A stretch of DNA of 50,354 bases from Enterobacteria phage vB_EcoS_IME18. Where the stretch lies: sequence record MH051911; one strand, given 5' to 3'. Numbering within the stretch: the stretch's first letter is position 1; each line of letters begins with the position of its first letter. Position numbers and translations under genes: made by a program. Positions 15,208 to 49,664 of this stretch are shown piece after piece. The notes beneath the pieces were generated by a model. That model was given only the letters and a program-made list of their open reading frames with translations, ran no database searches and had not been told where the DNA came from.

Positions 15208-15611
15208 AATATACCCTCTTTGTCTATTCGTGTGTAAATGGTGTCATAATGTGTCAACAATTGCCATTGTGACATTGCGATGTAGAGCTGTCAATGCCTG
15301 CGAGCCAATTTTAAGCCGTGTAACATTTGTCTAGCTGTCTAGAGTCACTATAGAAATATATAGCTCTCAAAAAAGTACTGTATATATAAACATGCAGATA
15401 GAAATATGCCAACAGTACGCCAGACAATGTAAGACAACTATACACAACTATTACAATATAATTATCTATATATATAAATAAAAAAAACACTATATATATT
15501 ATATAGATACATATATCTATATGTATATTTAGAGGCGTCACAGTGTGTAATTTTGTCACAAGTGCGATTCTAGACAAATATTACATCCGTGACAAGTTAA
15601 AGTGTAATCGA

Positions 15612-15626
15612 TAGCACTTTTTGCTA
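15612..15626 (+). promoter_or_regulatory. palindromic box TAGCA-N5-TGCTA
   Basis: TAGCACTTTTTGCTA inside control region; no good -10 at +22. Confidence 0.4.
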
Positions 15627-15816
15627 AAAATGGAGATGACTACCAGGCGAACTGGGCAACACCAGATCATCCCTCTCACAATCATTGCAATCTCAGCAAC
15701 AAATCAACCAACTGTTGCACACCATGCAATAATCACGTTTCATCATTTGCAATCAATCGCAATCAGAATTATTCCACCTATTCCGATATTGATGGAATAA
15801 TGAGCAATTATTGGAA

Positions 15817-28575: not shown

Positions 28576-28604
28576 TTGAATCGTTGTAGCGTTTACGCTA
28601 TAAT
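28576..28604 (+). promoter_or_regulatory. sigma70-type promoter (-35 TTGAAT, 17-bp spacer, -10 TATAAT)
   Basis: TTGAAT 28576-28581 and TATAAT 28599-28604; upstream of HTH gene 28656; its -10 overlaps the -10 of the divergent box promoter. Confidence 0.55.
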
Positions 28605-28627
28605 ACACGGCATACAGTAAACGTTTT

Positions 28628-28642
28628 TAGCAAAAAGTGCTA
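28628..28642 (-). promoter_or_regulatory. palindromic box (promoter-associated, divergent)
   Basis: TAGCAAAAAGTGCTA; on minus strand TATTAT 22 nt downstream, upstream of helicase; also sits about 10 bp from RBS of plus gene 28656. Confidence 0.55.
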
Positions 28643-28655
28643 TAGGAGAATTAAG

Positions 28656-29108
28656 ATGAGTATTCAACGCATCGCGGAGTCAACTGGTGAAATCGATAAA
28701 CGTCACATCAATGGTAACAACGGAACTCGACGCGGTAAAGACAAAAAGCCACGACAGCGCTGCGGGTTCTATATTCATAAGGAAGAAACACGCGCCGGAT
28801 TGCGAGCACGACTTGATGCGCTTATCGAATATTATGGTGGCCCTGCGGCATGCGCAAAGGCACTAAAAGTAACAAATCAGACGGTGCAAGGCTGGAAAGA
28901 ACGCAACATGATTTCGTGGCAAGGCGCTGAGGCTGCACATCGCGCTTACCGCCGACAGGGGTGTAAAGGATACCGCGCATCATGGCTGAGATTCGACCTC
29001 AAGTTTGATGGTAACGGCAAGTGCCTTGAGAAGCGATGCAAGAACAAGAAATTCATGCGGGTTGTGAAGAAGGAAGATATCGGAACGACCAATAGCATTT
29101 TTAGTTAA
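28656..29108 (+). CDS. putative HTH DNA-binding regulator (Cro/YdaS-like)
   Basis: Segment GGPAACAKALKVTNQTVQGWKERNMISWQGAEAAH resembles Cro-type HTH; SD AGGAG. Confidence 0.5.
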   Translation: MSIQRIAESTGEIDKRHINGNNGTRRGKDKKPRQRCGFYIHKEETRAGLRARLDALIEYYGGPAACAKALKVTNQTVQGWKERNMISWQGAEAAHRAYRRQGCKGYRASWLRFDLKFDGNGKCLEKRCKNKKFMRVVKKEDIGTTNSIFS

Positions 29109-29169
29109 AACAAACTACGCGTAGCGGGTTAACATCCTTCTACGCGTTTTTTATTTTGGAGATCTGGAA

Positions 29170-30105
29170 GTGAACGAAGAATTTATGATGTTTCAGAAAG
29201 AGGACGTTTTACCGTACATGAAGGGGTTATGGCGCGAGGCTTTCCAATCAATCTGCGGATTGCCGAATGATGTTTTTAATAAGAAGCACCAACCCTGCCC
29301 AAACTGCGGCGGTAAAGACCGATTTCGCTGGACTGACAATCTTAACACTCCAGGCGACGGCGGCGCGATCTGTAACTCATGCGGCAACGACTCAGGGATC
29401 GGTTGGTTGATGAAGTTAACTGGTATGCCGTATAGCGAATGCATAAACATCCTGGGGAGATTTCTCGGAAAGGTTCCGCAGGAATACATTGTCAAGGCCA
29501 ATAAAAAAGCGCGAAGAACTCCGGTGTCTGGCGTCAATGTTATGATGGCAGACCATGAAGCAGTGATGAAAGTTATGGAGCGCACAGAGAAGCGCGTAAA
29601 CACGCCTCTAAGCATGTTTGAGTCGCTACCAACTGAATCATTCGACGTTGGCGTAAAACGTCGAGAGGATGGCGGTGAATCGGTATTTCACACTATCCCG
29701 TGTCAACTTGTGCATGAGGACGGGCTTGATGACGAGTTTTGCAATATTTTGATTATTGATGAGGAAGGAAGGGAGTCATTTTACGCGAAGAAATACACGA
29801 GTTGCTCGGTTGCCGTGACTGGTAAAACAGAAAAGGCGATCTACTTATGCCTGAACTGGATTGATGCTCAGCATATTGCATTTCATACAAAGCAAGAAGT
29901 ATGGGCCTGCTTCACTCCTGAAAATATCGAAATGGTTGCGTACAGGTATAAAGGTGATCGAGAAGTAAGGGTGGCGTGCGAACCTTCAGACAAGGATACC
30001 TTGTACATGGCAGACGACCGACAATTAAAAATAATCATCCCGAATCTTGGAGGGTACCGTTCAGGAATGCAATCCAAATTATTCTCAGCAAGCGATCTAC
30101 TCTAA
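29170..30105 (+). CDS. DNA primase (zinc-ribbon type)
   Basis: CPNCGG...CNSCGN zinc-binding primase N-terminal motif; 311 aa; followed by terminator. Confidence 0.6.
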   Translation: MNEEFMMFQKEDVLPYMKGLWREAFQSICGLPNDVFNKKHQPCPNCGGKDRFRWTDNLNTPGDGGAICNSCGNDSGIGWLMKLTGMPYSECINILGRFLGKVPQEYIVKANKKARRTPVSGVNVMMADHEAVMKVMERTEKRVNTPLSMFESLPTESFDVGVKRREDGGESVFHTIPCQLVHEDGLDDEFCNILIIDEEGRESFYAKKYTSCSVAVTGKTEKAIYLCLNWIDAQHIAFHTKQEVWACFTPENIEMVAYRYKGDREVRVACEPSDKDTLYMADDRQLKIIIPNLGGYRSGMQSKLFSASDLL

Positions 30106-30128
30106 CCGCCTTCGGGCGGTTTTTTGTT
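30104..30128 (+). terminator. intrinsic terminator after primase gene
   Basis: Stem AACCGCC/GGCGGTT, loop TTCG, T-run TTTTTTGTT. Confidence 0.7.
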
Positions 30129-30169
30129 GGCCATTGCAAGACTCATAGCACAATGATAAAATCAGTGCT

Positions 30170-30184
30170 TAGCAATTCGTGCTA
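30170..30184 (-). promoter_or_regulatory. palindromic box adjacent to tail fibre RBS
   Basis: TAGCAATTCGTGCTA about 20 bp upstream of tail fibre ATG; oriented opposite to that gene; a degenerate forward copy lies at 30146-30160. Confidence 0.4.
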
Positions 30185-30205
30185 TTTACTTAAGGAGTTT
30201 ATACT

Positions 30206-32230: not shown

Positions 32231-32260
32231 AAATAAGCCCCGCAATGCGGGGCTTTTTAT
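32231..32260. terminator. bidirectional intrinsic terminator between tail fibre and ssb
   Basis: Stem AAGCCCCGC/GCGGGGCTT, loop AAT, flanked by A-run and T-run. Confidence 0.75.
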
Positions 32261-32676
32261 TAGAACGGGATATCATCATCAAATGTTGACTGAGGATTTG
32301 GCTGTGGCTGTGATTGCGTTCGCTGTTGTTGCTGAGGTGCTCGTTGTTGCTGGTTGCTTTGTCCTCTCTGACTGAATACCAGCTTAGGAAAATCAGCAGC
32401 CTGCAATGAATTGTAAATAGTTCCGTTGTGCTCACGTGATGAGATCTTCAACGTCTCGCACGATACTGAGATCACTCTACCAACCTGGAACGCATCACGA
32501 TACCAGTCAGCAAGTCCGGGCTTTCCACCGTCACTAAAAAAGAACGTGTAGTTTGTGTATTCGCGATCGCCATCGCGCGGTTTGTAGCTTTCTGCCAGTT
32601 CGATGATGTAAGTATTGCCGCCGTTACGTTCCAGAATCTTCGGTTCTTTGCGGATCTCTCCAGTGATAATATGCAT
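32260..32676 (-). CDS. ssb: single-stranded DNA-binding protein
   Basis: OB-fold-like N-terminus, Gln/Pro-rich linker, canonical acidic tail DDDIPF. Confidence 0.85.
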   Translation of the reverse strand: MHIITGEIRKEPKILERNGGNTYIIELAESYKPRDGDREYTNYTFFFSDGGKPGLADWYRDAFQVGRVISVSCETLKISSREHNGTIYNSLQAADFPKLVFSQRGQSNQQQRAPQQQQRTQSQPQPNPQSTFDDDIPF

Positions 32677-32723
32677 GATTTTCTCTCCTAAAATTTATGG
32701 GCGACCGAAGCCGCCCGAAATGA

Positions 32724-33371
32724 TTATTCGAAGTTGGTTATTGATTGAGATTGTACAGGTTTCGCGCTCGTTGCTTCAACCTGTTTTTTCTGTTCCGGCT
32801 GAGCCGGGCGAATGCCGCGAGCTTTTCCGATCTCAAACTTAGCCTTAAGTGCGTTGTAGTGATCCTGAATGATTGACTTGCTCGCCGTGTCCGTCTGTCG
32901 GTAAGCGTTGGCCCACACCTCTTTCAGTGATTCGATATCTTCACACGCATCAAGTTCTTTTTTCCAGTCCTTGACTGATTTCACCGCAAGCTGAGCGTCG
33001 TCATCACTCTGACTAATCCCCAGCGCCGCAGCGAGTGAGTAACGTCGCGCATAAGTCATCGCTGAGCCTACACCTTGAGGATCGCGTTTTGCAATCGGCA
33101 TCATCATGAAGAATTTGGCCCACTGCCCGGATTTGTGAATCAGCATAGTTTCAAGGTGGAAGGTCGTTTCCGTGCTTGTATCCAGCATTGATTGCAGGAT
33201 CATGATATCGTTGTCGGTTAGAGCCGGACTAACCGCTGCCATCATTGCGTCAAGAGTTGCGTATGAGTTTTTCAGGTGATTGTTTTTAGCGTCCTTCTTT
33301 GCTTTCGCGAATTTGTTGCGAGCATTAAACAGCGCCGGGAGGATTTCGTTGGTTTCTGGTGATAATTGCAT
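32724..33371 (-). CDS. ERF-family single-strand annealing protein
   Basis: Start reassigned to ATG 33369-33371 (SD AGGAGA); motif GSAMTYARRYSL typical of ERF. Confidence 0.7.
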   Translation of the reverse strand: MQLSPETNEILPALFNARNKFAKAKKDAKNNHLKNSYATLDAMMAAVSPALTDNDIMILQSMLDTSTETTFHLETMLIHKSGQWAKFFMMMPIAKRDPQGVGSAMTYARRYSLAAALGISQSDDDAQLAVKSVKDWKKELDACEDIESLKEVWANAYRQTDTASKSIIQDHYNALKAKFEIGKARGIRPAQPEQKKQVEATSAKPVQSQSITNFE

Positions 33372-33445
33372 TTTAACTTCTCCTGATTGGTTTATGAGGT
33401 GCATTATAACACCTCATTAGTTACTTGTTTAGCTATTTGTGCCGT

Positions 33446-34510
33446 TTACTTGTTTTGGTATCGTACCCATGAAGGCGTTTCAAGTTCAATCTCGCTTGCG
33501 TCGCCAGCGTACCCAGGCCAAACATCCATTTCAGAGCAAGCCTTGTAAGTGTGGACTACGCTAATGTACTGGTTACGACCGATCCTGATTTGCTCCATAG
33601 TCATACGGTAAGCCAGTGCGATATAAGGCTCTTTTTTCTCCTGCGCCAGCAATCGAACTACGATCGGGATATCTTCCGGGAAGTTGCCTTCAAAAGCGCC
33701 AGCCTGGATTGCGCGTCGTAGCAGATCATGCTGCAAGGCCATTTTCAGATAATACCCGTGATTGTATGCCAGTCTAGGGAACTCTAACGGGTTGGCGCTC
33801 ATTGTTGTTTTGAAGTCAGTGATAATCAGTGCTTCAGGAAAAATAACATCTTCGAATACAGGATCGCCATTCTCATCATAACCAGTCAGGACACGACCTG
33901 GAACATTCTCCTTGTAATCAAGATGGTCAAGTCGAACCTTAACCTTGACGCCGGATATCTCACCGAAGATTGAAATCTCACGCTGAGCCGTTTCGCTGTT
34001 AATGCACGCTTCGTGATCCGGGTTTTGCTCAAGTATAGCTCTCATCTTCATGCAGGCGTCGTATTTATCAGCGTCAACGAGTTTCTTTCCTTCAGCGCGC
34101 GCCTCAGCTTCTGCGATCAGTTCAGTCAGGTATTGAACGTTGAGTTCTTCACCACAATCAACCATCATTTTGATGAGGTCAGGGTACTGTTTACCGGATG
34201 TACCTTTCAGGCCAAAAGATTTTAACTTTGCCGCCAGCGCCGTTTGAGAAGTAATGAGATCTTTAAACTCTGATGGAGCAGGACAACGCGCATACGATGC
34301 AGTAAACAGATCTCGGCTCTCAAAGTTGGTATGCGACTGAGTACCGAACTCAAGCGCTTTCGTTGTCTCATTCTTCTTGAATCGCCAGTTAGCCGGGCAA
34401 GTTTGATAGATTTCTGCAAGGCTCGATCCGCTTACATACTCTGCCGCCCAACCTTCGTTGCTATGATACTCGTCGTTAGAAAGCTGGCTTGATGTGAATA
34501 CCTGGAACAT
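33446..34510 (-). CDS. PD-(D/E)XK recombination exonuclease
   Basis: 354 aa; motif IITDFKTT consistent with D-E-K nuclease core; SD AAGGAG; upstream of ERF and SSB. Confidence 0.6.
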   Translation of the reverse strand: MFQVFTSSQLSNDEYHSNEGWAAEYVSGSSLAEIYQTCPANWRFKKNETTKALEFGTQSHTNFESRDLFTASYARCPAPSEFKDLITSQTALAAKLKSFGLKGTSGKQYPDLIKMMVDCGEELNVQYLTELIAEAEARAEGKKLVDADKYDACMKMRAILEQNPDHEACINSETAQREISIFGEISGVKVKVRLDHLDYKENVPGRVLTGYDENGDPVFEDVIFPEALIITDFKTTMSANPLEFPRLAYNHGYYLKMALQHDLLRRAIQAGAFEGNFPEDIPIVVRLLAQEKKEPYIALAYRMTMEQIRIGRNQYISVVHTYKACSEMDVWPGYAGDASEIELETPSWVRYQNK

Positions 34511-35037
34511 TGCGTTTATCTCCTTCGTTTACGATGAATCCATTATAGCCATTAACAGCGTTTAGTCAATCGAATACATGTAATTGGTGTGTAATTGCGT
34601 GTCTATATTGCTCAAGTTACAACCAGCATCAGCAGAATCAATGTCTTAAGTCGATTTTTATGCGATGTCTATTGCGTAACACTTGTAACCGCTTTTTCTT
34701 AGAAATACACAGATATCCATGAATAGAATCCCGATCGATTAAATTTTGAACATATATGATAGAAATTTGACGAATCAATCAAATCACCTGTTACACGATA
34801 GACAACTGTTACACAACAATAATTATATATATAAAGCTAAAATTAAATATTATCTATCTATATATATTATATAGAGTTTTTATCATATCTCCCTGCGGTC
34901 GGATGGGATCGATTTTGTAACGCCATCTCAAGTTACAAAAATAGACACCTGTTACACGAAAAAAATTGTAATCGAGCTATTGCAATAAAAGTAAACGCGA
35001 CATACAATGCAATCACACTAACGACGAGGACATGCAA
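34511..35037. promoter_or_regulatory. second AT-rich divergent control region, partly homologous to 15208..15894
   Basis: No ORF; shares exact 18-bp CTATATATATTATATAGA and a GACAACT(G/A)T(T/A)ACACAAC segment with region 1; repeated CACCTGTTACACGA and CTCAAGTTACAA. Confidence 0.5.
34980..35008 (+). promoter_or_regulatory. sigma70-type promoter for lipoprotein gene (-35 TTGCAA, 17 bp, -10 TACAAT)
   Basis: TTGCAA 34980-34985 and TACAAT 35003-35008, about 30 bp upstream of ATG 35038. Confidence 0.5.
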
Positions 35038-35265
35038 ATGAAAAAGTTAATCACCATTATCGCTGCGGCATTCATCCTGACTGGTTGCTCATCGATGCCT
35101 GAGCGCACTTGCACGGCAATTTATGAATCAGGCGGCGCGGAGTACTCGGTTTACGTTTTTGGATCTAAGATGCGCGGAAAGGAGATGGTATTGCGTGCTG
35201 GATACCCATTCTCCTTCAACTATGTATCAGAGAAAAACTTCAAATCTCACGATTGCTCGATATAA
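35038..35265 (+). CDS. Cor-like superinfection-exclusion lipoprotein (putative)
   Basis: 75 aa with signal MKKLITIIAAAFILTGC (lipobox LTGC); SD GAGGA; next to tail fibre/J genes where cor sits in T1/phi80-like phages. Confidence 0.45.
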   Translation: MKKLITIIAAAFILTGCSSMPERTCTAIYESGGAEYSVYVFGSKMRGKEMVLRAGYPFSFNYVSEKNFKSHDCSI

Positions 35266-35288
35266 AAGAAAAGCCCCGCAAGGGGCTT
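35262..35288 (-). terminator. intrinsic terminator after distal tail genes
   Basis: Stem AAGCCCC/GGGGCTT, loop GCAA, A-rich run on plus side (U-run on minus transcript). Confidence 0.6.
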
Positions 35289-35976
35289 AGTCGTACGCTG
35301 TCGTTTTGATTGCTGTTATAATATTTCCATTATTTGTGGTGTTCATTATCTGACCCGCCGCAGTGGTTGCTGCTGCGTTTATTCTCGTTGTGCTCCCATT
35401 GTACCTGCATGAACTGCCTGCTGTTGAGTTTCCTATTATGGGTTGCCCAGTTGGCAGCCTGCCAATAACAACTTGATAGTTGCCAAGTATAGTTGGAACA
35501 ACTGCGTAGCTTCCGCTGAGTGTTGTGTCTATGTTTAATCCGCCGCCAGCGTATCCAGGAGTGCCAATTGTAACCAAATCACTAAGAACTTTTGTCTCAT
35601 TTGTCAGCACTAGCTTTCCTGACGCATCCCATATCGCCATACCCCAGCTCGGTAGTGACTGCTCAAATATGGCAAATATGTAATATGTTAGTGTGTATGA
35701 TTGGTTTGCTGGATTTGTCCCCCTTATATAAACAGTTCCAACATTGGGTCCGCTTCTGAAAGTAAAGGCTGAAAGCGCGGTCCCCTGTTGCGTACTTGTT
35801 GTTTTGCAAAAAGCTATAACCGGAACACCTGTAGGTATCCGAACATATCTCTCCGCAACCTGTGAACCACTAACATTTACTGATTTAATTTCCCCTCTCG
35901 CATATAAAGCGAATGGCGTGGATAACGGGGTTATGAATGGGTTTCCGTTTACATCTATAAAAGCACCGTATGACAT
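35287..35976 (-). CDS. putative tail fibre / receptor-binding protein
   Basis: 229-aa Gly/Thr/Asn-rich ORF immediately downstream of J-like gene. Confidence 0.45.
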   Translation of the reverse strand: MSYGAFIDVNGNPFITPLSTPFALYARGEIKSVNVSGSQVAERYVRIPTGVPVIAFCKTTSTQQGTALSAFTFRSGPNVGTVYIRGTNPANQSYTLTYYIFAIFEQSLPSWGMAIWDASGKLVLTNETKVLSDLVTIGTPGYAGGGLNIDTTLSGSYAVVPTILGNYQVVIGRLPTGQPIIGNSTAGSSCRYNGSTTRINAAATTAAGQIMNTTNNGNIITAIKTTAYD

Positions 35977-36308
35977 TAATCATTCTCCAGATATGCTATT
36001 AAGTAACAGTTTGATGATGGGTGCACGTTTGGCCCAGGTGAGTTTGCTGGCGTTACTGTTATCGTATTGCCGCTAGCAATAATTTTCCTGCCAGGTCCGC
36101 TAATGGCGCCATCGTCAAGGCTTATAACGTAGTTCACACGCATACCAGGTGGTACTTGATAGCTGAACGATGCTGAATTCTGGCCTGCTGACAAAAAGCT
36201 CCAACCAACAACCGTGACAGGCTTAATTCCATAGTTATTATAAACGCCATTTGCGTCCCAAGTTGATATACCGTACGCCATAATAAATCCTCCAAAAGAA
36301 AAGGGCAT
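35976..36308 (-). CDS. putative tail protein
   Basis: 110-aa ORF between J-like gene and distal fibre gene; start/stop overlap. Confidence 0.4.
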   Translation of the reverse strand: MPFSFGGFIMAYGISTWDANGVYNNYGIKPVTVVGWSFLSAGQNSASFSYQVPPGMRVNYVISLDDGAISGPGRKIIASGNTITVTPANSPGPNVHPSSNCYLIAYLEND

Positions 36309-36326
36309 CTCTCGATGCCCTTGATA

Positions 36327-39300
36327 TTACCATGAACCAGTCAACCTGCCAATCTGAACCCTCAGGCGACCACTCGCATCCCTAACAGATATTGTGGTAT
36401 TAGTTTGCTTCATTGCACCCTCACCGTCACTTCCGTAGTTTTCGAATGTTCCACCCTTGTCAAGTCTCCAGCCAGCCTTGTTAACGACATAGTTATTCGA
36501 TTGAATAACATTACCAATCATCGCATTCGTGATGAATCCGTTCTTAATAATGGCGCTATTAAGAATCACCTGATTACCTTCAACAACGAAAGGATACTGA
36601 GTCTGACCGTTCATCCCTGTCATGATTGCAAATCGCGACGCCTCGAATAGAATTTGCGCCTTAACAGCTGCGCCGGAACCAATCAGAGACATAGCCATGC
36701 CTGCGCTATATTCCTGTCCGTTGTATTTCAGACCCAGCTTGACGCCGTACATTGCACCAGTCGAATCTGCATTGCTCCACGAATCAAGTTTTTGAGAAAG
36801 TGCTGCCTCATTATCCCCAAGCCTCGCGCTTAATGACAAGTCAGCTTGCGTTCTCGCCTCAGTCTCGTTTGCTATAGCCTCTCTGATATCAGTCAAACTT
36901 GCCTGAATATCATCACCAATCTCTGCCCTGAGTTGGTCAATTTCACGCGATAGCGCTCCAGTCTCAGTTGCGATAACTTCACGCAATTCGCTATTGCTTG
37001 CACTAATCTGATCACCAAAACTTGCCCTTAACTGCTCAACTGCTGTTACTCGCGCCTGAGTCTCATCAGCAATAAGTTGCAGTGATTTGGTGTACTCTGC
37101 TTTTCGTTTTCCGTTCTCCTTCTTCATGTAGATCGCGTCTTTGTCATTAGCTAGAGCGTTCTCAATTGCTGCCTCTGCGTTCGCTGCGTTCTGCGCCGCG
37201 TTGTCGGTTGCGTTATCAACAAGCCACTCGTAACCCGGCGAGTTTTCGATATCGACAGAAATCTCCCCAATGATATCGTCAACGTTTGTTGATGCCATAC
37301 CTCTGACAAAATCAGTCCACTGAGACACGTTACCGATCCTGTCAACCGTCCTTACCCGATACCACACAATATTCCCTCCAGGCATCGGTGAGTGATAATA
37401 CTCATGCTGCGGATACGGAATCAAAGAAAGCAAACTTGCGTTATCCACTGTTCCATCCGGTGACTGCTGCAACTCCGTATAGGCCGTATCTCCAGAACCA
37501 TCAGAGAACCCCCATTTTGTACGGATACCAAAAACAACATCATCCGTAGCTGTAAGGTTAATCGGTCGGCCCGGTTCACCCTGTTTACCCGTCAACGTTG
37601 CCGCGACGATATTTGACCAGCCTGAAGTTGTGCCAGAACCAGCGACGGAGCGCACGCGAACCTGATAGTTGCCAGCGTAAATCCCTTCAACATAAACCTC
37701 CTTGTTTGCCGTCTGCGGGACGTTCTGCCAGTTGCCATTATCCTTTCGCCACTGGACGTCATAGAAAACTGCGTACGGCACTTTATCCCAGCTAACAATC
37801 ATCGTTTCTACGCTCATCCCCTGGACGATTCGTGACTCTGAGGACACTTGCACGTTTTCCGGTCTAGGGATCTGATCTGGTTCAACGATGCTCGTCGGTC
37901 GGTCGTCGATATTAACTCCGTAATCAATCTCATCGTACTTGTTAGGATCGTACTCCACCGCCGTTATTTTGTAGGTAAATTCCTCATCATCATCGCCCTT
38001 ATCGATTTTTGTCACGACGTACTGCTGTAACGCAATGTCGGTGCGGTCGATAGCGAATACCGTGTTAGGCTTCACAGGAAAGCCAAAGCCAATGTTAACC
38101 TCTATAGTCTTACCATCCGCACTAACACTTGATATTGTGCGCTTCACGGGCTTGCCATCTGGCTTATTTACGATAATGAAGTCACCCGCGCGTGCATCCA
38201 CCCGGAACGGCAAGAAAATCTGACTACCGGATACTTCGAGCAAGCGCCCTGATAGGTTCATCGTCAAGTTACTTGACCAGAAGTTATCAGCTATTGCCAC
38301 AACATCTCCGATTGTCGGGATCATACCCTCAAGTCCGGTAGCGAAGTTTACCGTAGTGCTGCGGAGGTTAGTTTTCAGAATCCATCTCCCGCGTCGGTTG
38401 GCCTCGCTTCGACGTGTGCAGCCGATCGCTGTAATGCTCGTTACGTTGTTCCCGAACCGTAGAGTAGCCTCACGATCGAATACTGGCTCAACGTCCTGCT
38501 GATACATGTTTTGCTCGTCGTCAAACATCACATTACACGTCGTGTACATGCTCTTTTCGCTTGCAAACGTGTAGGAGAAGTCACCATTAACCACGTTGTC
38601 GTTAGTGAAGATGTACGCAGGCTCACGCGGCCTATCGATGATTACCGAAATGCTTTCGCCATTCCAAAAGCTCATACCTCGAAAGATTGAGCAAATATCT
38701 CGAATAACCTTGTAAGCGTCAGTCTGAGACTGGATTATCACGTCGCAAAGGTATCGAGGTTCCGTCCCGCCCTTCCCATCAGGAACCATCTGATCGCAAT
38801 ATTGCGCAGCCTCGTAGAGCGCCCATTTATCGACAGCGATACCAAGCTCTTTCTGATCCAAGCCGTAACGCTGATTAATCATCAGGTCATAAAGAACCCA
38901 CGCCGGATTATTCGTCCATGCTTTTTTGAAAGTGCCATCCCAATTGCCGTTGTATGTTCGCGATTCTGTGTCGTAGTTCGACGGAACGCTTACAATCTTC
39001 CAGCGCTTACGAATTGAGATCGTAGGTAACTGGTTTGGGAACATCTTCGAATCGAACTCTACGAAAAGAAGACCAGTCAGAGGATATCGGAATTTGGCAT
39101 CAATGACCTCGGCATAGCTTCTTACCTGGATTGCATCAACGACATTCGAGTCATTGGAATCAGGCGTCTTTCGAACAACTCTGAATATTACCTGATTGTT
39201 GAAGTTAGGCAGGTTTACGCGACGGCTTCGATCATAACCTGACATTGTTTTACCTTCGATTACGTCAGTAAGAACAGTCTCAAACGAACCGCCATCAACC

Positions 39301-39746
39301 GCTTGCTGCACCTCGTACTCAACTCGAACGCCGTTTTTATCACCATTGCTTTCAATTCGTACACCTCGAGGCATAAACATTTTGATGCGTATTGCCGATA
39401 GTGTTTTATTGGTTACTGAGATCGTGTATGGGTTATCGGTAGTAACCTCACGATTTACAGTTACCTCACTTGAGCTATCTTCCATGCCCTTGATGTATTC
39501 CTGCGTCTGAGTTCCCGGCCTGAACTCAGCCCTTACCCCTTCGAAGTTGAATGATCCATCCTCGTTTTGCACCGGAACTGAGTTAAACATCAACTGCTTT
39601 AGGCTGAATGTTTCGTCAATTTCACCATCAGATACAGCTAACAGGATCTTGATTTTGTTGATTGAGATTAGATTGTCCTCCATCTCAACTGGGTTATGAG
39701 GCTTCTGTGACCCACCTTTAGATCCGCTTATCACTTTTTGAATCAT
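36327..39746 (-). CDS. tail tip / host specificity protein (lambda gpJ-like)
   Basis: 1139 aa; follows I/K/L/M-like genes in lambda order. Confidence 0.75.
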   Translation of the reverse strand: MIQKVISGSKGGSQKPHNPVEMEDNLISINKIKILLAVSDGEIDETFSLKQLMFNSVPVQNEDGSFNFEGVRAEFRPGTQTQEYIKGMEDSSSEVTVNREVTTDNPYTISVTNKTLSAIRIKMFMPRGVRIESNGDKNGVRVEYEVQQAVDGGSFETVLTDVIEGKTMSGYDRSRRVNLPNFNNQVIFRVVRKTPDSNDSNVVDAIQVRSYAEVIDAKFRYPLTGLLFVEFDSKMFPNQLPTISIRKRWKIVSVPSNYDTESRTYNGNWDGTFKKAWTNNPAWVLYDLMINQRYGLDQKELGIAVDKWALYEAAQYCDQMVPDGKGGTEPRYLCDVIIQSQTDAYKVIRDICSIFRGMSFWNGESISVIIDRPREPAYIFTNDNVVNGDFSYTFASEKSMYTTCNVMFDDEQNMYQQDVEPVFDREATLRFGNNVTSITAIGCTRRSEANRRGRWILKTNLRSTTVNFATGLEGMIPTIGDVVAIADNFWSSNLTMNLSGRLLEVSGSQIFLPFRVDARAGDFIIVNKPDGKPVKRTISSVSADGKTIEVNIGFGFPVKPNTVFAIDRTDIALQQYVVTKIDKGDDDEEFTYKITAVEYDPNKYDEIDYGVNIDDRPTSIVEPDQIPRPENVQVSSESRIVQGMSVETMIVSWDKVPYAVFYDVQWRKDNGNWQNVPQTANKEVYVEGIYAGNYQVRVRSVAGSGTTSGWSNIVAATLTGKQGEPGRPINLTATDDVVFGIRTKWGFSDGSGDTAYTELQQSPDGTVDNASLLSLIPYPQHEYYHSPMPGGNIVWYRVRTVDRIGNVSQWTDFVRGMASTNVDDIIGEISVDIENSPGYEWLVDNATDNAAQNAANAEAAIENALANDKDAIYMKKENGKRKAEYTKSLQLIADETQARVTAVEQLRASFGDQISASNSELREVIATETGALSREIDQLRAEIGDDIQASLTDIREAIANETEARTQADLSLSARLGDNEAALSQKLDSWSNADSTGAMYGVKLGLKYNGQEYSAGMAMSLIGSGAAVKAQILFEASRFAIMTGMNGQTQYPFVVEGNQVILNSAIIKNGFITNAMIGNVIQSNNYVVNKAGWRLDKGGTFENYGSDGEGAMKQTNTTISVRDASGRLRVQIGRLTGSW

Positions 39747-39782
39747 GATGTTTACCTTTTTGTGCTATTTATCAGTGGACTC

Positions 39783-39809
39783 ATTATACAGGCGAAAAAA
39801 AACCCGCGC
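39783..39809 (-). terminator. intrinsic terminator/attenuator between I-like and J-like genes
   Basis: Stem AACCCGC/GCGGGTT preceded by A8 on plus (U-run on minus transcript). Confidence 0.55.
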
Positions 39810-39823
39810 AAGGCGGGTTAATT

Positions 39824-40423
39824 TTAACTCATATCCTCGGCATAAGAACCTGCTGAGAAAGTTGCGCCACCTCCTGCGCGATATCCATACGGGACCGGGA
39901 GAGGGTATCCCGCCGCCGTCGTATTGACAGCACCGCCGAACGCGTACGAAGGTTTATTCTTGCTTGATTGAACTTCAAAGTTTGCGCCACCCGGCTGCGG
40001 TGAAATCATCTGCATCACGCCGCCCAGCACCATAGCGCCGCCCATCATAAACAGAGACGAGGACATTGTGCCCATTAAAGCCAGAGACGCGCCGCCAGTA
40101 TAGAATGCTGCAACCATTATTGCCGCGCCCAATACAACCTGAAATAGACCTCCTGTCTTAGAGCCAGTAGGGATCGGTACGATTCTTATCTCTTTCGCGC
40201 ACTTGAATTTTTCCTCTTCATGGTGTCCCACGTTAACGCCATCCACAAATATTGCAAACTTGCTACGAGATCCTACCTCGCTTTGCATGTATTCTTTAAA
40301 TCCGTCCACCTGACTGGATAGCGCCCGTATGGCTTCCGGGTAAGAGTCAACAGCGTAACGGTGAAAGACGCCGAAGCGTCTCCCAAGTGAACCTGACAAT
40401 TTAATTACTTTTACATCATTCAT
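39824..40423 (-). CDS. tail assembly protein (lambda gpI-like)
   Basis: 199 aa with Gly/Met-rich hydrophobic C-terminal half; ATGA overlap with K-like gene. Confidence 0.65.
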   Translation of the reverse strand: MNDVKVIKLSGSLGRRFGVFHRYAVDSYPEAIRALSSQVDGFKEYMQSEVGSRSKFAIFVDGVNVGHHEEEKFKCAKEIRIVPIPTGSKTGGLFQVVLGAAIMVAAFYTGGASLALMGTMSSSLFMMGGAMVLGGVMQMISPQPGGANFEVQSSKNKPSYAFGGAVNTTAAGYPLPVPYGYRAGGGATFSAGSYAEDMS

Positions 40424-41154
40424 AATTTAAGATCCTTATGGCGAACGATTAAAACAGTATGATCCTGATACCATCCGGAATAAATATCACGACGAGATAG
40501 CTTGCCGAAGGCATGATGCAAGATCTGATTATCTCCCAGGTAAATCCCTGCATGGTTCCATACCGGAACGTTTTGCCCTATCTGCATGATTACCATATCA
40601 CCGAATGACGGATTATTCTGATCTGGAATCTCAACGAAGCCATCCTTCTTGTAATAATCCTGATAGAGATTAATTCCGTACTCAGGTTTCCACCATTCAA
40701 AATTCAATCGGCGATCGCGCAATTCTACGCCGTGCTCTTTGTGCCATGCAATAACAAGACCGTAACAGTCGAATGATCCTAATGACCACGGACGACCAAT
40801 CAGAGGCAATTTCTCCGGCTTCACAAATCGCATATCCCCTTCCGGCACGCTAACAATAATCCAGGTAACTTCCATCTCGTTGCACATGCACGTATCGTGA
40901 GCGCTTGGTAGAGTTGTAGCCCCGTCTCCTGTGTGGCTGTGAACAATTGCTATTGTTGTTGATTCCGCATCGTCCTCAATGCAAGCGTATTGTACAGCAT
41001 CCATCATGAAATGATTCTCGGGATCGCGGTGTACATTATCAACGCGATGGTATTTTTGTACGCGGCCCTTTTGGGTGACTACCCCACAGCATTCGCGAGG
41101 ATATTCTTCTTGAGCGTGAGTCATAATTTCAAGTTTAATTTTTGCACTAATCAT
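40420..41154 (-). CDS. tail assembly protein (lambda gpK-like, JAB/MPN plus NlpC/P60)
   Basis: JAMM-like motif IVHSHTGDGATTLPSAHD; Cys/His-containing C-terminal domain; start chosen at ATGA overlap. Confidence 0.7.
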   Translation of the reverse strand: MISAKIKLEIMTHAQEEYPRECCGVVTQKGRVQKYHRVDNVHRDPENHFMMDAVQYACIEDDAESTTIAIVHSHTGDGATTLPSAHDTCMCNEMEVTWIIVSVPEGDMRFVKPEKLPLIGRPWSLGSFDCYGLVIAWHKEHGVELRDRRLNFEWWKPEYGINLYQDYYKKDGFVEIPDQNNPSFGDMVIMQIGQNVPVWNHAGIYLGDNQILHHAFGKLSRRDIYSGWYQDHTVLIVRHKDLKL

Positions 41155-41933
41155 TGATTTTTCCTCTGTAGTGAAGCGACTGCGCAACCGCCAAAATCCA
41201 ATTCATTGTTTGCGCCGAATCTCAGGCGGCAGGCCGTTACCGTTCCCGGGCAAAAATCCAGCGAAGGATCGTCTACCGGATTATTGTCTTTATCGAAGTA
41301 ACCATTTTGCCCGTTGTATCCGCACCCCTTCCCGGTTTTATACCATCCCCTCTGCGCCCAATAGCAAACGCTTTGAGTTAGTCGTGACGGTATCATGATT
41401 CCATCCATATCATAAGGAGACGTTAGATCGAACCTGGCGACACTCTTATCAACATAGTTCGGACGCTCGATATAGTATACCAGTTTACGGTAAGCTCCGT
41501 CAGCGATTGAGCCGTTAGGTTGAATTAAGTCCTTTTGAGTGATCCAGATAGTCACCTTAGCTTGCATTAGTCCGTTATATGCACGAATCATCGCAGATAC
41601 GCGACTATCGATGTTTGCCACCGTTAATTGTGGCTTTGTGGCCTTGCCGGAACTGTCGAACGAGATCCCGGATATACCGAAAGGTCGCGCGCCGTATTGC
41701 TCGCCACGGAAGGTGATTTCTTTCGGCGGTAGCGTTCCGGTTTGCTGTGCCTGCATGATTTCTTCTGGAGTGTACTGGATATTTTCCCCGTGGAAACGGT
41801 ACACCTGAGCGCCGAACTTGCTGCCATCAACTTCAATCAGAGTGATTATCTCTCCAGGGTATAGTGATTGAAGGCAGTTGTGAAACAGGCTCTTCCCGCT
41901 TTCTTCATCATAAAGTTTTTTGTTTTCGCTCAT
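41151..41933 (-). CDS. minor tail protein (lambda gpL-like)
   Basis: Start reassigned to ATG 41931-41933 (SD AGAGGA); position between M-like and K-like genes. Confidence 0.65.
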   Translation of the reverse strand: MSENKKLYDEESGKSLFHNCLQSLYPGEIITLIEVDGSKFGAQVYRFHGENIQYTPEEIMQAQQTGTLPPKEITFRGEQYGARPFGISGISFDSSGKATKPQLTVANIDSRVSAMIRAYNGLMQAKVTIWITQKDLIQPNGSIADGAYRKLVYYIERPNYVDKSVARFDLTSPYDMDGIMIPSRLTQSVCYWAQRGWYKTGKGCGYNGQNGYFDKDNNPVDDPSLDFCPGTVTACRLRFGANNELDFGGCAVASLQRKNQ

Positions 41934-41973
41934 TGTCTTTTCCTCTTGTTTAGTTGCAACCATTCTACAGCTA

Positions 41974-41996
41974 CAAAAAAACCCGCGCAAGGCGGG
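41974..41996 (-). terminator. intrinsic terminator/attenuator between M-like and L-like genes
   Basis: Stem CCCGC/GCGGG, A8 run on plus (U-run on minus transcript). Confidence 0.5.
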
Positions 41997-42012
41997 CTTT
42001 TGTCATGAAGTG

Positions 42013-42366
42013 CTATTCCATAGATGTAAACTGCTCCATAAACGTGACATTAATTTCCATCACGTCGCGTGATACTGGCTTCGCACCCAGGCTGTTAGGC
42101 TTAACAACCCATATTCCGATCTTCCCGTCCGGCGGCGTCCATGCGAAAGGTTTAATGCGGTGAGAATCACAGAAGTCGTAAACAGCCATGAAATCTTCCC
42201 CAGCATAGACAACTGAATACTCGCGTCGCGTGGTGTTAAATCCAGAAGATGCAAGCTGCATGTAGCCGTTTCCAAACTGTATGGATCTGTCATTGTTGGT
42301 AGTTGTAAGGGAGCCGCCGCCCCCTTGAACCTGCGTACACCAACTGAAAGTGTCAAGTGTCGCCAT
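42013..42366 (-). CDS. minor tail protein (lambda gpM-like)
   Basis: 117 aa; immediately downstream of tape measure gene. Confidence 0.65.
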   Translation of the reverse strand: MATLDTFSWCTQVQGGGGSLTTTNNDRSIQFGNGYMQLASSGFNTTRREYSVVYAGEDFMAVYDFCDSHRIKPFAWTPPDGKIGIWVVKPNSLGAKPVSRDVMEINVTFMEQFTSME

Positions 42367-42368
42367 TA

Positions 42369-45242
42369 TTAGCCTCCTGTTTTTTCCTGAATGTAATTGT
42401 AAACCTCACCGCCCTGTGAACAAGACTCTCGAATCATTTTTTTGAACATCATTTCTACGCCCTGAGAAATTCCTCTCGGATCTGAACCGTTGTCAACTTT
42501 AACCTCCATACCCCTAACATCAACGACCGTCCCGCCTGCTGATTGGTTCACTGCCTTCGGTGCGGATTTAGATGCGTTAAATCCAGATGTTGCAACACTA
42601 CCCGCAGCGGCAGCAAGCGAGGTAACAGCGACGCCTGAAGATAAAGACCTAAAACCAGAGACGGCAGGCGTAGGAGTTGCCTGTGATACCGCAGAAGCAC
42701 CAGGCGACACCCCTCCAGCAAAGCTCCACGTCTTACCGCCCATCATGCCTGAGATCGTATTGAAGATTACCATTTGAGCAATCATCTTGATAATCATGCT
42801 AATGATGTTTTTCGCAAAGTCCTCAAAATTTGCCTTACCTGTAGTCAGGAATTGGGTCATCATGTCACTCATTCCGTTAAGTGAACTTGACGCGATATCA
42901 TACACGTTGCCGTACATATCCATTGCAGAATCGCCGTAATCTGCAAATGCACTTTCAGCACCTGCTAACCAGTCAGAACGCTTGGCATCTTCCGCAGCAT
43001 AGTAATCATTTTGTGCCTTGATCATGTTCTGGAGTTTTTCATCTCCTTCGCTGCCACCTGCATTAATATAATCAGTAGTGATCTTAGCCAACTCAGCTTG
43101 CCTTTCCATTTCTCGGGTGCTCATCCCTCGAGACGCGTTTAGCTGTTCTGTAGCTGCCGTCAAATCATTGACAAATTTCAGTGATTTATCGGTAAGAGCG
43201 TTCAACTGCTGCTGCTTAACAATCTGATCGCCAATCTCAGCCTTTTGTTTCGCAAGCTCTAAAACCTTCTCTTGGTTTGCAAGTAGTGCTTTTTCTTCCG
43301 CAGATAGCTGACGCTTAGAACTAGCTTCTCGAAGAACAGCAATTGTAGCCTCAGTCGTAAACAGCGCCTTTCTCTGTGCTGATATTTTTTGCCCGATCTC
43401 CTTGTGCTCCTGCAAAACCTTAAGCTGCGCTTTGAGTGAAATTAACTCCTTATCGAATTGCTCTGTAGGTGAGCGTAAAATTTTCGACTGCTTATTTCGT
43501 TCACGGTTTCGCTTTTCGATCTCTTCCGCTTCTTCCTTGATAGCGTCCTTAGTTTCCTGGCTATACTGCTTTTCAAGAGTACGGCGCTGCTTCATTGCTT
43601 CAATGTATCCCATCTCACCTTTTTCAACACGGGCGTTAATGGCATCAAGCTCTGAAGCTAACTGATCGTAGTTGTCACGAGAACTTTTTACAATATTCTC
43701 CTGTTCCTTTAGTACATCAGCACCAAAATCACTCATGCCAGGCAGGGACTGTGTAGCCTTAATTGCAGATGCGATAAAGTTTGAGATGTACTCATCACCC
43801 TTAGCAAGAATCATTTTCACCTGAATTACTGTACCTTGAACTACGTCAATAATCAGGTTTAACGCTCCGAGCGTATGATCCCCAACCCATCCCCACGCAT
43901 CAGAGGCCCACTGCTTAATATCGTTCCACATTTTTTCAAGAGGTGTGGCATTGTCTGCGATCGACTTCATTCGTTTTTCCATTACATCGGCGAATAATTT
44001 CGTGGCTTCAGACACTGCCTCCGTTTCACCCTTAGTACGGCTTAGAGTATCGATGTATGTCAGCTGTCCTTTTTCTAAAAAATTGTATTGCTCGTTAAGT
44101 TTAGCTAAACCCTTTACAGGATCGCTTGCGATTTTATCGAACTCAGCGATGATTTTACTTGCTGATTTTCCGGTTGCTGTCGACCACTCAGCGGTAGCTT
44201 TTGTGATGTTCTGAATCTGCTCTCGAGTATACTTCCCCGTACTGGCAAGTTCAGTAACAATATCACGAATACTTCCAACGGTTGAGTTACTTGTCTGCGC
44301 AACCTTTTTAGCAACCAAATCAAGATCATCAGCCGTAACTCCAGCATAACCTCCAGTCTCAATAAGTGCATTCTGCATATCAGTTATTGACTTGTAAGAG
44401 TCATAACCAGCTTTCGCAAGAAGACCTAAAGAACCGACAAGAACACCAACGCCAACTGTGACAGGATTAATATAGCTTAGCAATACCTTAAACGTATTCC
44501 CGATCCCGCCGAACGAGTCCTTGATTTGACCGCCTTGCTGGATGGCAACCATCCAAACTGGCATACCGGACGCAAGAGATGTAACGACGTCGGTAATCTG
44601 TGCAGGAAGCATTCGCATTGCCTGCCTATATTGCCCTGCGCTAATACCTGCGGCATTCATGGCTCTACCCTGTTCTTTCAGTTTTGCGATCAGGGGCGCT
44701 GCTTCATTTGATAGTCCAAGCTGAGCCGCTTTCAGTTCCATTAACTCTGCGTGAGTTTTGCCAATGGCGTTAACCTGACTGTTCAGGGAATCCATGAACG
44801 CTTTGTTTTTCGCTGCCGCCTGCTCTTTTGCTTTCGCCTCCTGCAATGCTGCCTGACCTTCTTCTGTAAGCATGGCCCGGCTGCGAGCAAGTTTTGCGTT
44901 TTGCATATCCAGCATTTCACCTAACCGGAAAAATGTTTCATCTGGAACGACGCCCTTTTGCCAGAGCTTGTCAAGCTGCTGAGATGCAATCTTCAGCCTT
45001 TCCATTTTTGATACTGTAGGATCGATTGCCTTTTCTACAGCCTCGTACTCTTTTCGCTGGCGCTTAAGTTGCTCAGCGTGTTCTTTAGCCTTCTGTTTTG
45101 CAACCTCAGCCTCATTGATTAAAGACCCCATAGAGTCAGCGGCTTGGTCGTTAGCTTTTGAAAACTCTTTCAATGACTTGACGGCGCGCTGCACTGTCGA
45201 CACATCAACGTCAAGCGATAGACCTGCTACCTTATCAACCAT
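42369..45242 (-). CDS. tail tape measure protein
   Basis: 957 aa, long Ala/Gln/Lys-rich coiled-coil regions, Gly/Met-rich hydrophobic segment; follows G/G-T chaperones. Confidence 0.85.
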
Positions 45243-45258
45243 ATAACCCCCTTATATA

Positions 45259-45281
45259 CAAAAAAACCGCCAAACGGCGGC
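45259..45281 (-). terminator. hairpin plus U-run between chaperone and tape measure genes
   Basis: Stem CCGCC/GGCGG with A-run on plus (U-run on minus transcript). Confidence 0.45.
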
Positions 45282-45916
45282 TTAGTTATTCTGCTTAGCA
45301 ATCATTTCGAGCGCTTTCGCTTCCATGATCCTAACGTCCTGCAATGCCAGTTCTTCATCCTCTATTTTATAGATTTTAAACAACATAGGCAAAACATTAT
45401 AATCAAGACCGTAAGCGCCAGCGCCTGAACTTCTCCACTGAGTGAGCATTGATGTAAAAACATTCCAAGCCTTCAACATTTCAGCGTCGCCAATTATCGT
45501 TTCCGGTTCCTCGTCTTCATAGTCAGAAAGACTTAAACCAACCGATCGCAATTGTTCCTCTGTTGGCGGCTTCTGATATAACAGATAGACCGCCTTTTTT
45601 AGTTTTTTGCGCGGTGTCCGGCAAGCGCCTTGATGTAAGTCGCTGTCAGGTTGTACGCTGCGGAAGGATAATACTGAACCAGTTTTCGTGAATTTTCTTC
45701 GTTAAATTCTTCTTCAAGGTTCCATCCTGACGCGATCTTGGTAATGAACTCGCTGTCGTTCATTTCTCCCTGGTTAGCATACATGTCCTGAACTTCTTTA
45801 CTGGAAAGGTGGCGCACAGTGAAAATGATCGTTGCATCTTCACCGTTAGGCATGGTGAAGGTAACTGGAAGTTTGAAGTCTGGAAGTTGACCAAGAACGA
45901 AATTAAATTTAGCCAT
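45282..45916 (-). CDS. tail assembly chaperone G-T fusion (via programmed -1 frameshift)
   Basis: T-frame ORF is open upstream of its annotated start and overlaps G; slippery heptamer A_AAA_AAC at G stop. Confidence 0.6.
45599..45916 (-). CDS. tail assembly chaperone (lambda gpG-like)
   Basis: 105 aa; SD AGGAGAA; ends in slippery site AAAAAAC followed by TAA. Confidence 0.65.
   Translation of the reverse strand: MAKFNFVLGQLPDFKLPVTFTMPNGEDATIIFTVRHLSSKEVQDMYANQGEMNDSEFITKIASGWNLEEEFNEENSRKLVQYYPSAAYNLTATYIKALAGHRAKN
45602..45608 (-). other. -1 programmed ribosomal frameshift slippery site AAAAAAC
   Basis: mRNA reads GCA AAA AAC TAA; -1 slip gives AAA AAA CUA and continues into 45282..45598 frame. 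Confidence 0.6.
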
Positions 45917-45938
45917 GATATTTCTCCTGATTGGTTAA

Positions 45939-45953
45939 TAGCACTTTTTGTTA
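45939..45953 (+). promoter_or_regulatory. palindromic box adjacent to chaperone G RBS
   Basis: TAGCACTTTTTGTTA about 20 bp upstream of G start on opposite strand; TACGAT 22 nt downstream on plus. Confidence 0.4.
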
Positions 45954-45989
45954 AAAGCAAAGAGTGCAAAGTTGATACGATGATTTTAC

Positions 45990-46017
45990 AGAAATGAAGA
46001 AGGGGGCGCAAGCCCCC
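45990..46017 (-). terminator. intrinsic terminator after major tail gene
   Basis: Stem GGGGGC/GCCCCC, loop GCAA, U-rich tract on minus transcript. Confidence 0.6.
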
Positions 46018-46029
46018 TGTGGATATGAT

Positions 46030-46698: not shown

Positions 46699-46699
46699 A

Positions 46700-48305: not shown

Positions 48306-48349
48306 AATTTACCCCCATAAAAAAAGGCGCTACATGAGCGCCTTGATGA

Positions 48350-48637: not shown

Positions 48638-48650
48638 TTTGATTTCTCCA

Positions 48651-48679: not shown

Positions 48680-48686
48680 TATAATA

Positions 48687-49646: not shown

Positions 49647-49664
49647 GATTACTTCTCCGTAGTT

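Follow-up and report, generated by a model that had tools for sequence, protein, structure and literature searches.

A marbox-like repeat in the promoters of a T1-like phage, with reversed copies set against canonical promoters

Introduction

The DNA of Enterobacteria phage vB_EcoS_IME18 (sequence record MH051911; "the window" below is the whole 50,354-nucleotide stretch that was analysed) carries about 23 copies of a short repeated box, aATAGCACnnnTTG(C/T)TAAAA. From its sequence match, its spacing and its conservation we judge it somewhat likelier than its opposite that this box is a site for an activator of the MarA/SoxS/Rob type, and that the copies which face the wrong way relative to a neighbouring gene are set against canonical promoters.

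T1 is a classic coliphage whose control of transcription is essentially uncharacterised. The 2024 re-annotation of phage TLS listed only three sigma-70 promoters and left a 21-nt repeat unexplained (PMC11447400). This direct repeat, aaATAGCACnnnTTGnTAAAA, has 21 copies in TLS (German, Misra and Kropinski 2024, PMC11447400), lies about 76 nt upstream of start codons and was found in T1, Rtp and Rogue1 as well; its function was left open as a stoperator, an enhancer site or a UP element (PMC11447400). The window has the same repeat, with consensus aaATAGCACnnnTTGnTAAAA and about 20 intergenic copies. The box is thus already known as an unexplained repeat, and what is new here is its probable identity as a marbox; searches of openly available papers turned up nothing that connects the marbox or Rob/MarA/SoxS with T1-like phages.

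The repeated box and the marbox consensus

The 15-mer core of the box, TAGCACNNNTTGNTA, has the palindromic centre TAGCA-N5-TGCTA, and 30 matches to it were observed in the window where 0.78 were expected (at most one mismatch allowed, palindromic copies counted on both strands). The core is palindromic in about half of the copies, and the box as a whole is asymmetric, with ATAGCAC on its 5' side and TTGnTAAAA on its 3' side; the pattern ATAGCAC-(T/G)WW-TTG-Y-TAAA fits 22 of the 23 boxes. Invariant across the 23 copies are the positions A, T, A, GCAC, T, T, G, T and AAA, and the variable ones (T/G, W, W and C/T) coincide with the degenerate positions of the marbox.

Marboxes are asymmetric 20-bp sites to which regulators of the AraC family bind as monomers: MarA, SoxS and Rob (with RamA in Klebsiella and Salmonella). 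The published consensus of the marbox is AYnGCACnnWnnRYYAAAY (PMC3709825; an updated form is given in PMC2453137) or gcannwwntgnnaaa (PMC12052159), and the phage box fits both. To put a scale on this match we used a weight matrix built from 70 Salmonella MarA/SoxS/Rob/RamA chromatin immunoprecipitation sequencing sites (Table 1 of PMC10268841), which is independent of the phage. The maximum of this matrix is 17.7 bits, and its training sites have a best score of 17.4 and a median of 10.7; the phage boxes score 15.2 to 17.5 bits at 21 sites. Matches of at least 14 bits number 25 in the window versus 0.8 in dinucleotide shuffles, and a 50-kb stretch of E. coli K-12 gave 0 such matches, its top score being 12.1. 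E. coli's own marboxes at micF and mar score 13.3 and 13.2 bits on the same matrix. The box therefore appears, by its sequence and by the promoter geometry described below, to be a near-perfect marbox, and binding of a factor to it is predicted.

Two further matrix matches lack the ATA prefix. One (9318-9332, minus strand, 16.8 bits) lies inside the open reading frame (ORF) 9274-9762. The other (33428-33442, minus strand, 16.1 bits) has a TATAAT 17 bp downstream and lies upstream of gene 32724-33404, and may be an extra promoter of class II type.

Forward copies and promoter geometry

In about 19 copies a -10 hexamer (TATAGT, TAGAAT, TATTAT or similar) lies 22 bp (21-23) beyond the 15-mer core; it is often preceded by TG and has a ribosome-binding site and a start codon downstream. 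Counted from the end of the 20-bp marbox the gap to the -10 is exactly 18 bp in 13 of these promoters, and the remainder have a gap of 17 or 19 bp or a near-consensus -10 (CATAAT, CATTAT). In E. coli micF we measured the same 18 bp from the marbox end to the -10 TAGAAT. The orientation of the box relative to the -10 is strictly fixed throughout; the box covers about -50 to -31 (centre about -40.5) in place of a -35, and the hexamer at the -35 position reads Aaaaac. This is the arrangement of class II promoters, in which a forward marbox overlaps the -35 and no recognisable -35 is present (PMC12052159, PMC10268841, PMC8811837).

The box contains TTGnTA, which was considered as the -35 of the box promoters and rejected. 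It keeps a constant distance of 22 bp to the -10, and region 4 of sigma-70 uses -35/-10 spacers of 15-19 bp, which this distance exceeds. The same spacing bears on an explanation that dispenses with a trans-acting factor, namely that the box is a cis element for RNA polymerase itself, UP-like or like a displaced -35, which boosts extended -10s, while the reversed copies are divergent or antisense promoters or remnants that lie near start codons by chance. A-tracts flank the box, TTGnTA is there, many box promoters have extended -10s that need no -35, and the TLS authors themselves proposed UP-like enhancers (PMC11447400). Yet TTGnTA is out of reach of sigma-70 region 4, the invariant GCAC and TG are not features of UP elements, and the copies at 49702 and 30170 (below) have no conserved -10 of their own and nevertheless keep a full box inside another promoter, where spacer sequence would otherwise be free to drift. 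We regard this cis-element explanation as improbable, at roughly one chance in eight.

A second suggestion of the TLS paper (PMC11447400) was that the repeats resemble the stoperators of mycobacteriophage L5, that is, repressor-bound roadblocks that halt elongating polymerase, and the abundance of asymmetric copies, most of which face one way with respect to transcription, does recall these. Against it, no immunity repressor was seen in this virulent phage, the orientation of the copies follows the promoters and not the direction of elongation, and the copies are intergenic, at a fixed 18 bp from -10s and outside the transcription units, which is not the L5-type placement; roadblocks of this kind are very unlikely here.

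One box is turned backward relative to its promoter at a greater distance (15611-15630, Table 1). Its centre at about -60.5 is a class I-like position, of which this is the single case; in E. coli mar a backward marbox lies 16 bp from the -35 with its centre at -61.5. The layout box-16 nt-TTGnnn-17-TAnnAT is kept in three otherwise different left-flank variants among relatives, and the spacing falls inside published windows (PMC12052159, PMC10268841). The surrounding 15480-15610 region has features of its own: A/T-rich TATATA-type repeats (15490-15530) and an inverted repeat, GTGTAATTTTGTCAC / GTGACAAGTTAAAGTGTAAT, flank the leftward promoter TTGTCA-17-TAGAAT, and the flank occurs in three or four unrelated versions among relatives. 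It may be an operator of another regulator (perhaps the Cro-like protein), an origin or a packaging feature.

The forward box at 6051-6070, before the small terminase gene, immediately follows a conserved extended -10, TGnTAAAAT; the promoter through which the late operon is entered has an overlapping box as well. Tunavirus and relatives whose terminase is 89-92% identical keep this box, and it is absent (within 1 mismatch) in more distant relatives.

Two other features of the forward box promoters were seen. In about 10 of the 19, a strong hairpin (z <= -2.6 versus shuffles) is predicted for the sequence that runs between the box and about +15. The -10 lies in the hairpin loop at the box promoters 7884, 9257, 9777, 11324, 12611, 18164, 18683 and 19183, and the hairpin lies just before the -10 at 14405, 23106, 25094 and 26117. 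The stems differ in sequence from copy to copy while the pairing persists; in TLS, one counterpart bears a terminator annotation (T57), and the hairpins may be the 3' end or terminator of the upstream transcript, overlapping the next promoter. The motif CATCGAnAACGA is conserved about 7-18 nt downstream of the -10 in many forward box promoters, at or just past the predicted start (e.g., 7840-7850, 12560-12572, 16640-16650 and 21400-21410), and could be an initial transcribed sequence or a leader element.

Four reversed copies near start codons

The window shares about 88-90% DNA identity with phage T1 and its relatives, and in the major capsid protein it is 100% identical to Escherichia phage ADB-2; by these comparisons it is a T1-like phage, a Tunavirus near ADB-2/T1. 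Its late genes run on the minus strand from the small terminase gene (start 6060) down past position 1, wrapping around to a block at 50199..32260 whose contents include the decoration protein, capsid, tail tube, chaperones and tape measure. Small early genes occupy 6121-15577 (minus) and 15826-21638 (plus), replication and recombination genes 21651-28562 (minus), and a plus-strand block at 28656-32230 holds a Cro-like helix-turn-helix (HTH) protein, the primase and the tail fibre.

A first-pass annotation, made from the sequence alone, had singled out four box copies that are oriented opposite to the adjacent gene and lie 10-50 bp upstream of its start codon. The four are indeed there, with 15-mers at 28628-28642, 30170-30184, 45939-45953 and 49702-49716, and their gaps to the start codons are 13, 21, 22 and 55 nt. 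The boxes near the plus-strand genes (28656, 30206) have the minus orientation, and those near the minus-strand genes (45916, 49646) the plus orientation. The genes beside them encode the Cro-like HTH protein, the tail fibre (with a Peptidase_S74 domain), a tail assembly chaperone (Phage_TAC_4) and the major capsid protein; three of the four neighbours (tail fibre, chaperone and capsid) are late genes. The idea that the reversed boxes activate their neighbouring genes in class I fashion was rejected, because 13-55 nt leaves no room for a promoter. The features of the four sites are collected in Table 1.

Table 1. Positions of boxes, promoter elements and terminators in the window
Feature	Position	Strand	Remarks
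Forward box	6051..6070	-	Adjoins the ribosome-binding site of the first late gene, small terminase
Backward box	15611..15630	+	15 bp upstream of the -35 of leftward promoter TTGTCA-17-TAGAAT (15595..15567)
Sigma-70 promoter TTGAAT-17-TATAAT	28576..28604	+	HTH-regulator/primase operon; 10/12 match
-10 TATTAT	28600..28605	-	Box promoter of the helicase operon (gene start 28562); 18 bp past the marbox end
20-bp marbox ATAGCACTTTTTGCTAAAAA	28624..28643	-	17.0 bits; putative activator site of the minus-strand promoter
Intrinsic terminator	30104..30121	+	After the primase gene; annotated in T1 and Chapo
Tail-fibre promoter TTGCAA-17-TAAAAT, upstream TG	30134..30162	+	Annotated in Chapo; conserved in relatives
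Reversed box	30166..30185	-	About -4..+16 of the tail-fibre promoter; 11.8 bits
Reversed box	45938..45957	+	Between the tail-tube and chaperone genes; 15.2 bits
-10 TACGAT, upstream TG	45976..45981	+	Antisense divergent box promoter; 18 bp past the marbox
Candidate chaperone promoter TTGCGC-17-TAAAAT	45983..46011	-	-35 in the terminator loop
Terminator of the tail-tube gene	46001..46018	-	
Terminator	49671..49696	-	Immediately downstream of the capsid promoter
Major capsid promoter TTGACG-16-(TGc)TATTAT	49698..49725	-	10/12 match, TG present
Reversed box	49701..49720	+	About -29..-10 of the capsid promoter; 15.2 bits

At the first site, the same annotation had proposed that a canonical plus-strand promoter and a minus-strand box promoter share their -10 region. 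This holds: the minus-strand TATTAT (28605..28600) overlaps the plus-strand TATAAT (28599-28604) by 5 bp, and, given a start near 28612, the 15-mer falls at +17..+31 of the plus-strand transcript as had been stated (the full 20-bp marbox at about +13..+32). The canonical promoter is annotated in the T1 and Chapo records and conserved in relatives, and the back-to-back layout at 28576-28643 is kept in relatives and in TLS (DR11/P57). By sequence, 28599-28605 has the overlapping -10s of a bidirectional promoter, with start sites predicted near 28612 and near 28593, about 19 bp apart. Copy 28628 thus appears to be a normal forward box promoter of the divergent helicase operon, reversed only with respect to the HTH gene.

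At the tail-fibre site the box lies over the predicted start of a canonical promoter. Its score is only 11.8 bits because its tail is AAG; several relatives have AAA. An antisense promoter driven by this box was looked for and rejected, as the hexamer at class II distance (TATGAG, 30147..30142) has no T at -7 and is freely variable among relatives. This copy looks like an operator over the tail-fibre start site.

The chaperone site has promoter elements on both strands. A TAnnnT lies exactly 18 bp past the box in all 21 distinct relatives, often with a preceding TG, and the spacer sequence between them is highly variable; on the other strand the sense -10, TA(A/G/C)AAT, is kept in 21 of 21 with TTGCGC 17 bp upstream. 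Starts are predicted near 45988 rightward and near 45976 leftward (the chaperone direction), which places the box at about +19..+39 of the chaperone transcript. From this pattern copy 45939 is, we believe, a genuine conserved divergent promoter pair with interlocking -10s, and the box-driven transcript would run antisense into the tail-tube gene. A sense promoter formed from the reversed box itself (TGcTATTAA) was also considered and was rejected, since its -7 is not conserved among relatives.

At the capsid site, box 49701-49720 makes up the spacer and the first two -10 bases of the capsid promoter. In 29 of 29 distinct relatives TTGnnn and TATnAT or TATATT are present with a full box between them. 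An antisense promoter was rejected here as well: the hexamer found at class II distance has no T at -7 and is free to vary among relatives, and what had seemed to be conservation of an antisense -10 is the stop codon of the upstream immunoglobulin-like gene. Copy 49702 looks, from its placement, like an operator in the spacer and -10 of the capsid promoter.

The capsid start (predicted at about 49691) lies within the terminator stem 49696..49671, in its 5' arm; transcripts that start there would have only a truncated hairpin, and read-through from upstream would have the full terminator. Similar modules of terminator plus promoter, with TTGCGC in the hairpin, a 17-bp spacer and TATAAT or TAGAAT, occur on the minus strand at about 39750-39800 and 41960-42015, and weak box-like sequences (39753-39767 and 42001-42015) adjoin them. 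The first of these modules lies 6 nt from the start codon of the 1139-amino-acid tail-tip gene.

The closeness of the four boxes to ribosome-binding sites, which the first-pass annotation had pointed out, is a by-product of short leaders. Boxes do lie 13-22 nt from three start codons, inside predicted leaders, and one could imagine a leader hairpin or a protein site by the Shine-Dalgarno sequence that controls translation or mRNA stability. But the stem would consist of five A/U-rich pairs, one of them mismatched in the TTGTTA variants (45939 and 49702), and is too weak; box 49702 lies upstream of the predicted start, within the promoter; about 19 other sites use the same sequence as a promoter element at the DNA level; and an Rfam scan of the whole window matched no family. 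We found no support for a role in RNA or translation, and give it hardly any weight.

Conservation of the reversed copies

Conservation in the late region was examined in a sample of 42 full-length related loci whose tail-tube proteins are 55-98% identical. The capsid-site box is present in 39 of the 42 and the chaperone-site box in 27, and 67 of the 69 late-region boxes are antisense to the late genes; these counts are not independent, as many of the loci are close relatives. All 12-13 Tunavirus relatives have copies 28628 and 30170, as do two relatives of 74-77% identity, and the TAAAAT of the tail-fibre promoter is conserved in relatives. The reversed copies are kept in place and orientation across divergent relatives, more than chance would give.

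The first-pass annotation had read the reversed copies as a switch in which occupancy of the box represses one direction and activates the other and so might time late-gene expression. What stands of this is that every reversed box overlaps a sigma-70 promoter and that this overlap is conserved, and the architecture, as far as sequence can tell, supports an early/late switch. What does not stand is that the copies form one class, for they range from a divergent pair with shared -10s to apparent operators.

Candidate binding proteins

The phage HTH proteins had been put forward as the factors that read the box. The HTH regulator (28656-29108) is conserved across Drexlerviridae and is the only annotated regulator, with a single Cro-type HTH. 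Its Pfam matches, P22_Cro and YdaS, are both below threshold; a profile made from its homologues matches Cro proteins in PDB, and its predicted core (residues about 43-130, predicted local distance difference test above 90) superposes on Xfaso-1 and N15 Cro with a template modelling score of about 0.7. Structure comparison of the predicted HTH regulator gave no AraC-family matches. A phmmer/hmmsearch over the 561 window ORFs of at least 40 amino acids, with MarA and SoxS as queries, found no homologue of either (best E = 0.7). Outside its Cro-fold core the regulator has a strongly conserved basic N-terminus (GEIDKRTINGNNGTRRGKDKKPRKR), predicted with low confidence, and an extension at the C-terminus that is predicted with confidence and keeps Cys and Gly residues; neither part was placed in a family.

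The most serious alternative is nevertheless that a phage protein, either this Cro-like HTH protein or an unannotated small early protein, binds the core as a dimer, activates the box promoters as a delayed-early class, shuts its own promoter and acts on the late promoters, the resemblance to a marbox being coincidence or mimicry. The spacing of 10 bp between the half-site centres is suitable for a dimeric HTH, and the Cro fold of the HTH protein and its conservation across the family agree with such a role. The HTH gene has a strong canonical promoter that needs no activator and overlaps the box promoter, a typical autoregulatory layout. On the other side, the copies keep the box asymmetric (22 of 23 have ATAGCAC as the left half, and the right half reads TTG(C/T)TAAAA with C and T about equal), and orientation is strict in the approximately 19 promoters and flipped only at the class I-like position, which a symmetric dimer does not need. 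A near-maximal score on the MarA/SoxS/Rob matrix together with spacing identical to that of micF is unlikely by coincidence, and a repressor made by the phage would come too late to silence late promoters at DNA entry. We put the chance of a phage dimer at somewhat above one in five.

Because a Cro dimer leaves the asymmetry, the orientation rule and the near-maximal matrix score unexplained, a host protein of the Mar/Sox/Rob type is favoured. It is the better candidate in that the box is a consensus marbox in class II position, the phage has no AraC-type protein that we could find and its HTH protein has the Cro fold; a host protein is the likelier binder, ahead of the phage Cro-like HTH, and the earlier proposal is to that extent disfavoured. 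With a factor that is already in the cell before infection, strong late promoters could also be kept silent from the time of DNA entry.

Discussion

The scheme that we propose builds on computed sequences, geometry and conservation, from which we infer binding, activation, repression and timing. A factor bound to the box would recruit RNA polymerase to about 19 class II promoters of early and middle genes. The reversed boxes overlap what appear to be canonical sigma-70 promoters firing the opposite way, and, because of this overlap, factor or polymerase on a reversed box must interfere with the adjacent promoter; the bound factor would favour the box-driven direction and occlude or compete with the other. 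While the factor is available, expression of the HTH/primase operon, the tail fibre, the chaperone and tail block and the capsid would be lowered, and that of the terminase operon probably likewise. The likeliest factor would be a host protein present at infection, of which Rob is the constitutive one, and release late in infection might come about by titration of a limited factor by replicating phage DNA or through a phage product.

Several points weigh against this scheme. MarA and SoxS are stress-induced and scarce without stress. Rob is largely aggregated under standard conditions (PMC10268841), and with the regulators scarce or aggregated it is not obvious that some 20 promoters of a virulent phage should depend on them. 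A dimeric phage HTH protein could also bind, because the core is palindromic in about half of the copies, and the many box promoters with extended -10s may be active without an activator. The class I-like copy is 1 bp nearer its -35 than the marbox of mar. The -35 of the chaperone promoter is weak, as TTGCGC matches TTGACA at three of six positions and is below the scan threshold. Finally, literature searches found no binding, transcript or mutant data for any T1-like phage, and no transcript start-site or RNA sequencing data on Drexlerviridae.

The class II marbox reading assigns about 19 promoters at once and explains why orientation matters, and it makes of the reversed copies a testable early-to-late switch that works by class II activation, occlusion and shared -10s. 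Class II activation, repression through marboxes and promoters with shared -10s are each known; their combined use in organising the programme of a virulent phage would be new. Whether the T1-like phages (Drexlerviridae) wire nearly their whole transcription programme to host MarA/SoxS/Rob is a larger claim, to which we give a little less than an even chance. The same tentative grade applies to its joint form, in which early and middle genes are switched on, capsid, tail, tail-fibre and terminase genes are shut, and late release follows from titration or inactivation of the factor. If the ligand is indeed a host Mar/Sox/Rob protein, widespread enteric phages, among them therapy candidates and laboratory contaminants, would couple their expression to regulators of antibiotic and bile tolerance, which would matter for phage-antibiotic interactions. 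Phage development would then be sensitive to the bile salts, oxidants and antibiotics that control MarA/SoxS/Rob (as well as RamA in Klebsiella and Salmonella), and the phage boxes would offer very strong natural marboxes for studies of these regulators.

How does this arrangement compare with known systems? The closest is TLS, which has the same consensus in about 20 intergenic copies some 76 nt before starts, a reversed copy (DR7/T35) that adjoins a terminator in the head region, and DR11 back to back with the canonical promoter P57 (PMC11447400). The TLS paper states that the repeats follow the direction of transcription, and is silent on the fixed -10 spacing, on the marbox identity and on the overlap between reversed copies and promoters (PMC11447400). 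The class II promoters of E. coli and Salmonella (micF, lpxL and rfaY) have their consensus in common with the phage box; the phage boxes outscore the host marboxes on the matrix, and host mar-sox-rob sites are scattered and degenerate whereas the phage has about 20 near-identical consensus sites.

For the reversed copies there is precedent at pbpG, which MarA/SoxS/Rob repress via a marbox in the promoter spacer (PMC12052159). The phage capsid promoter (49698-49725) resembles this type of repression in that its box also lies in the -35/-10 spacer. Repression through a marbox within the promoter has reportedly been described by Schneiders et al. in 2004/2006 at purA, hdeA and rob. Such repression also acts from marboxes over the start-site region, where phage box 30166-30185 is found. 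The candidates for repression in the phage are strong, near-consensus late promoters, unlike the pbpG-type cases, and the likeness is one of sequence.

Bidirectional promoters with shared or overlapping -10 elements were reportedly described by Warman et al. in 2021. As in these, the -10s of opposite strands overlap in TATAAT/TATTAT at 28599-28605; unlike them, the phage site has one canonical -35/-10 arm and one activator-type arm, so a factor could choose the direction and symmetry is not required. At the middle promoters of T4, a case of sigma appropriation, the MotA box has its centre at -30 and is recognised by two proteins of the phage, MotA and AsiA. In both T4 and the T1-like phages a phage-wide motif replaces the -35 upstream of a sigma-70 -10 and marks a temporal class of promoters; the T1-type box differs from the MotA box in that no phage homologue of its presumed reader was found, its centre is at about -40.5, and it matches the site of a host factor.

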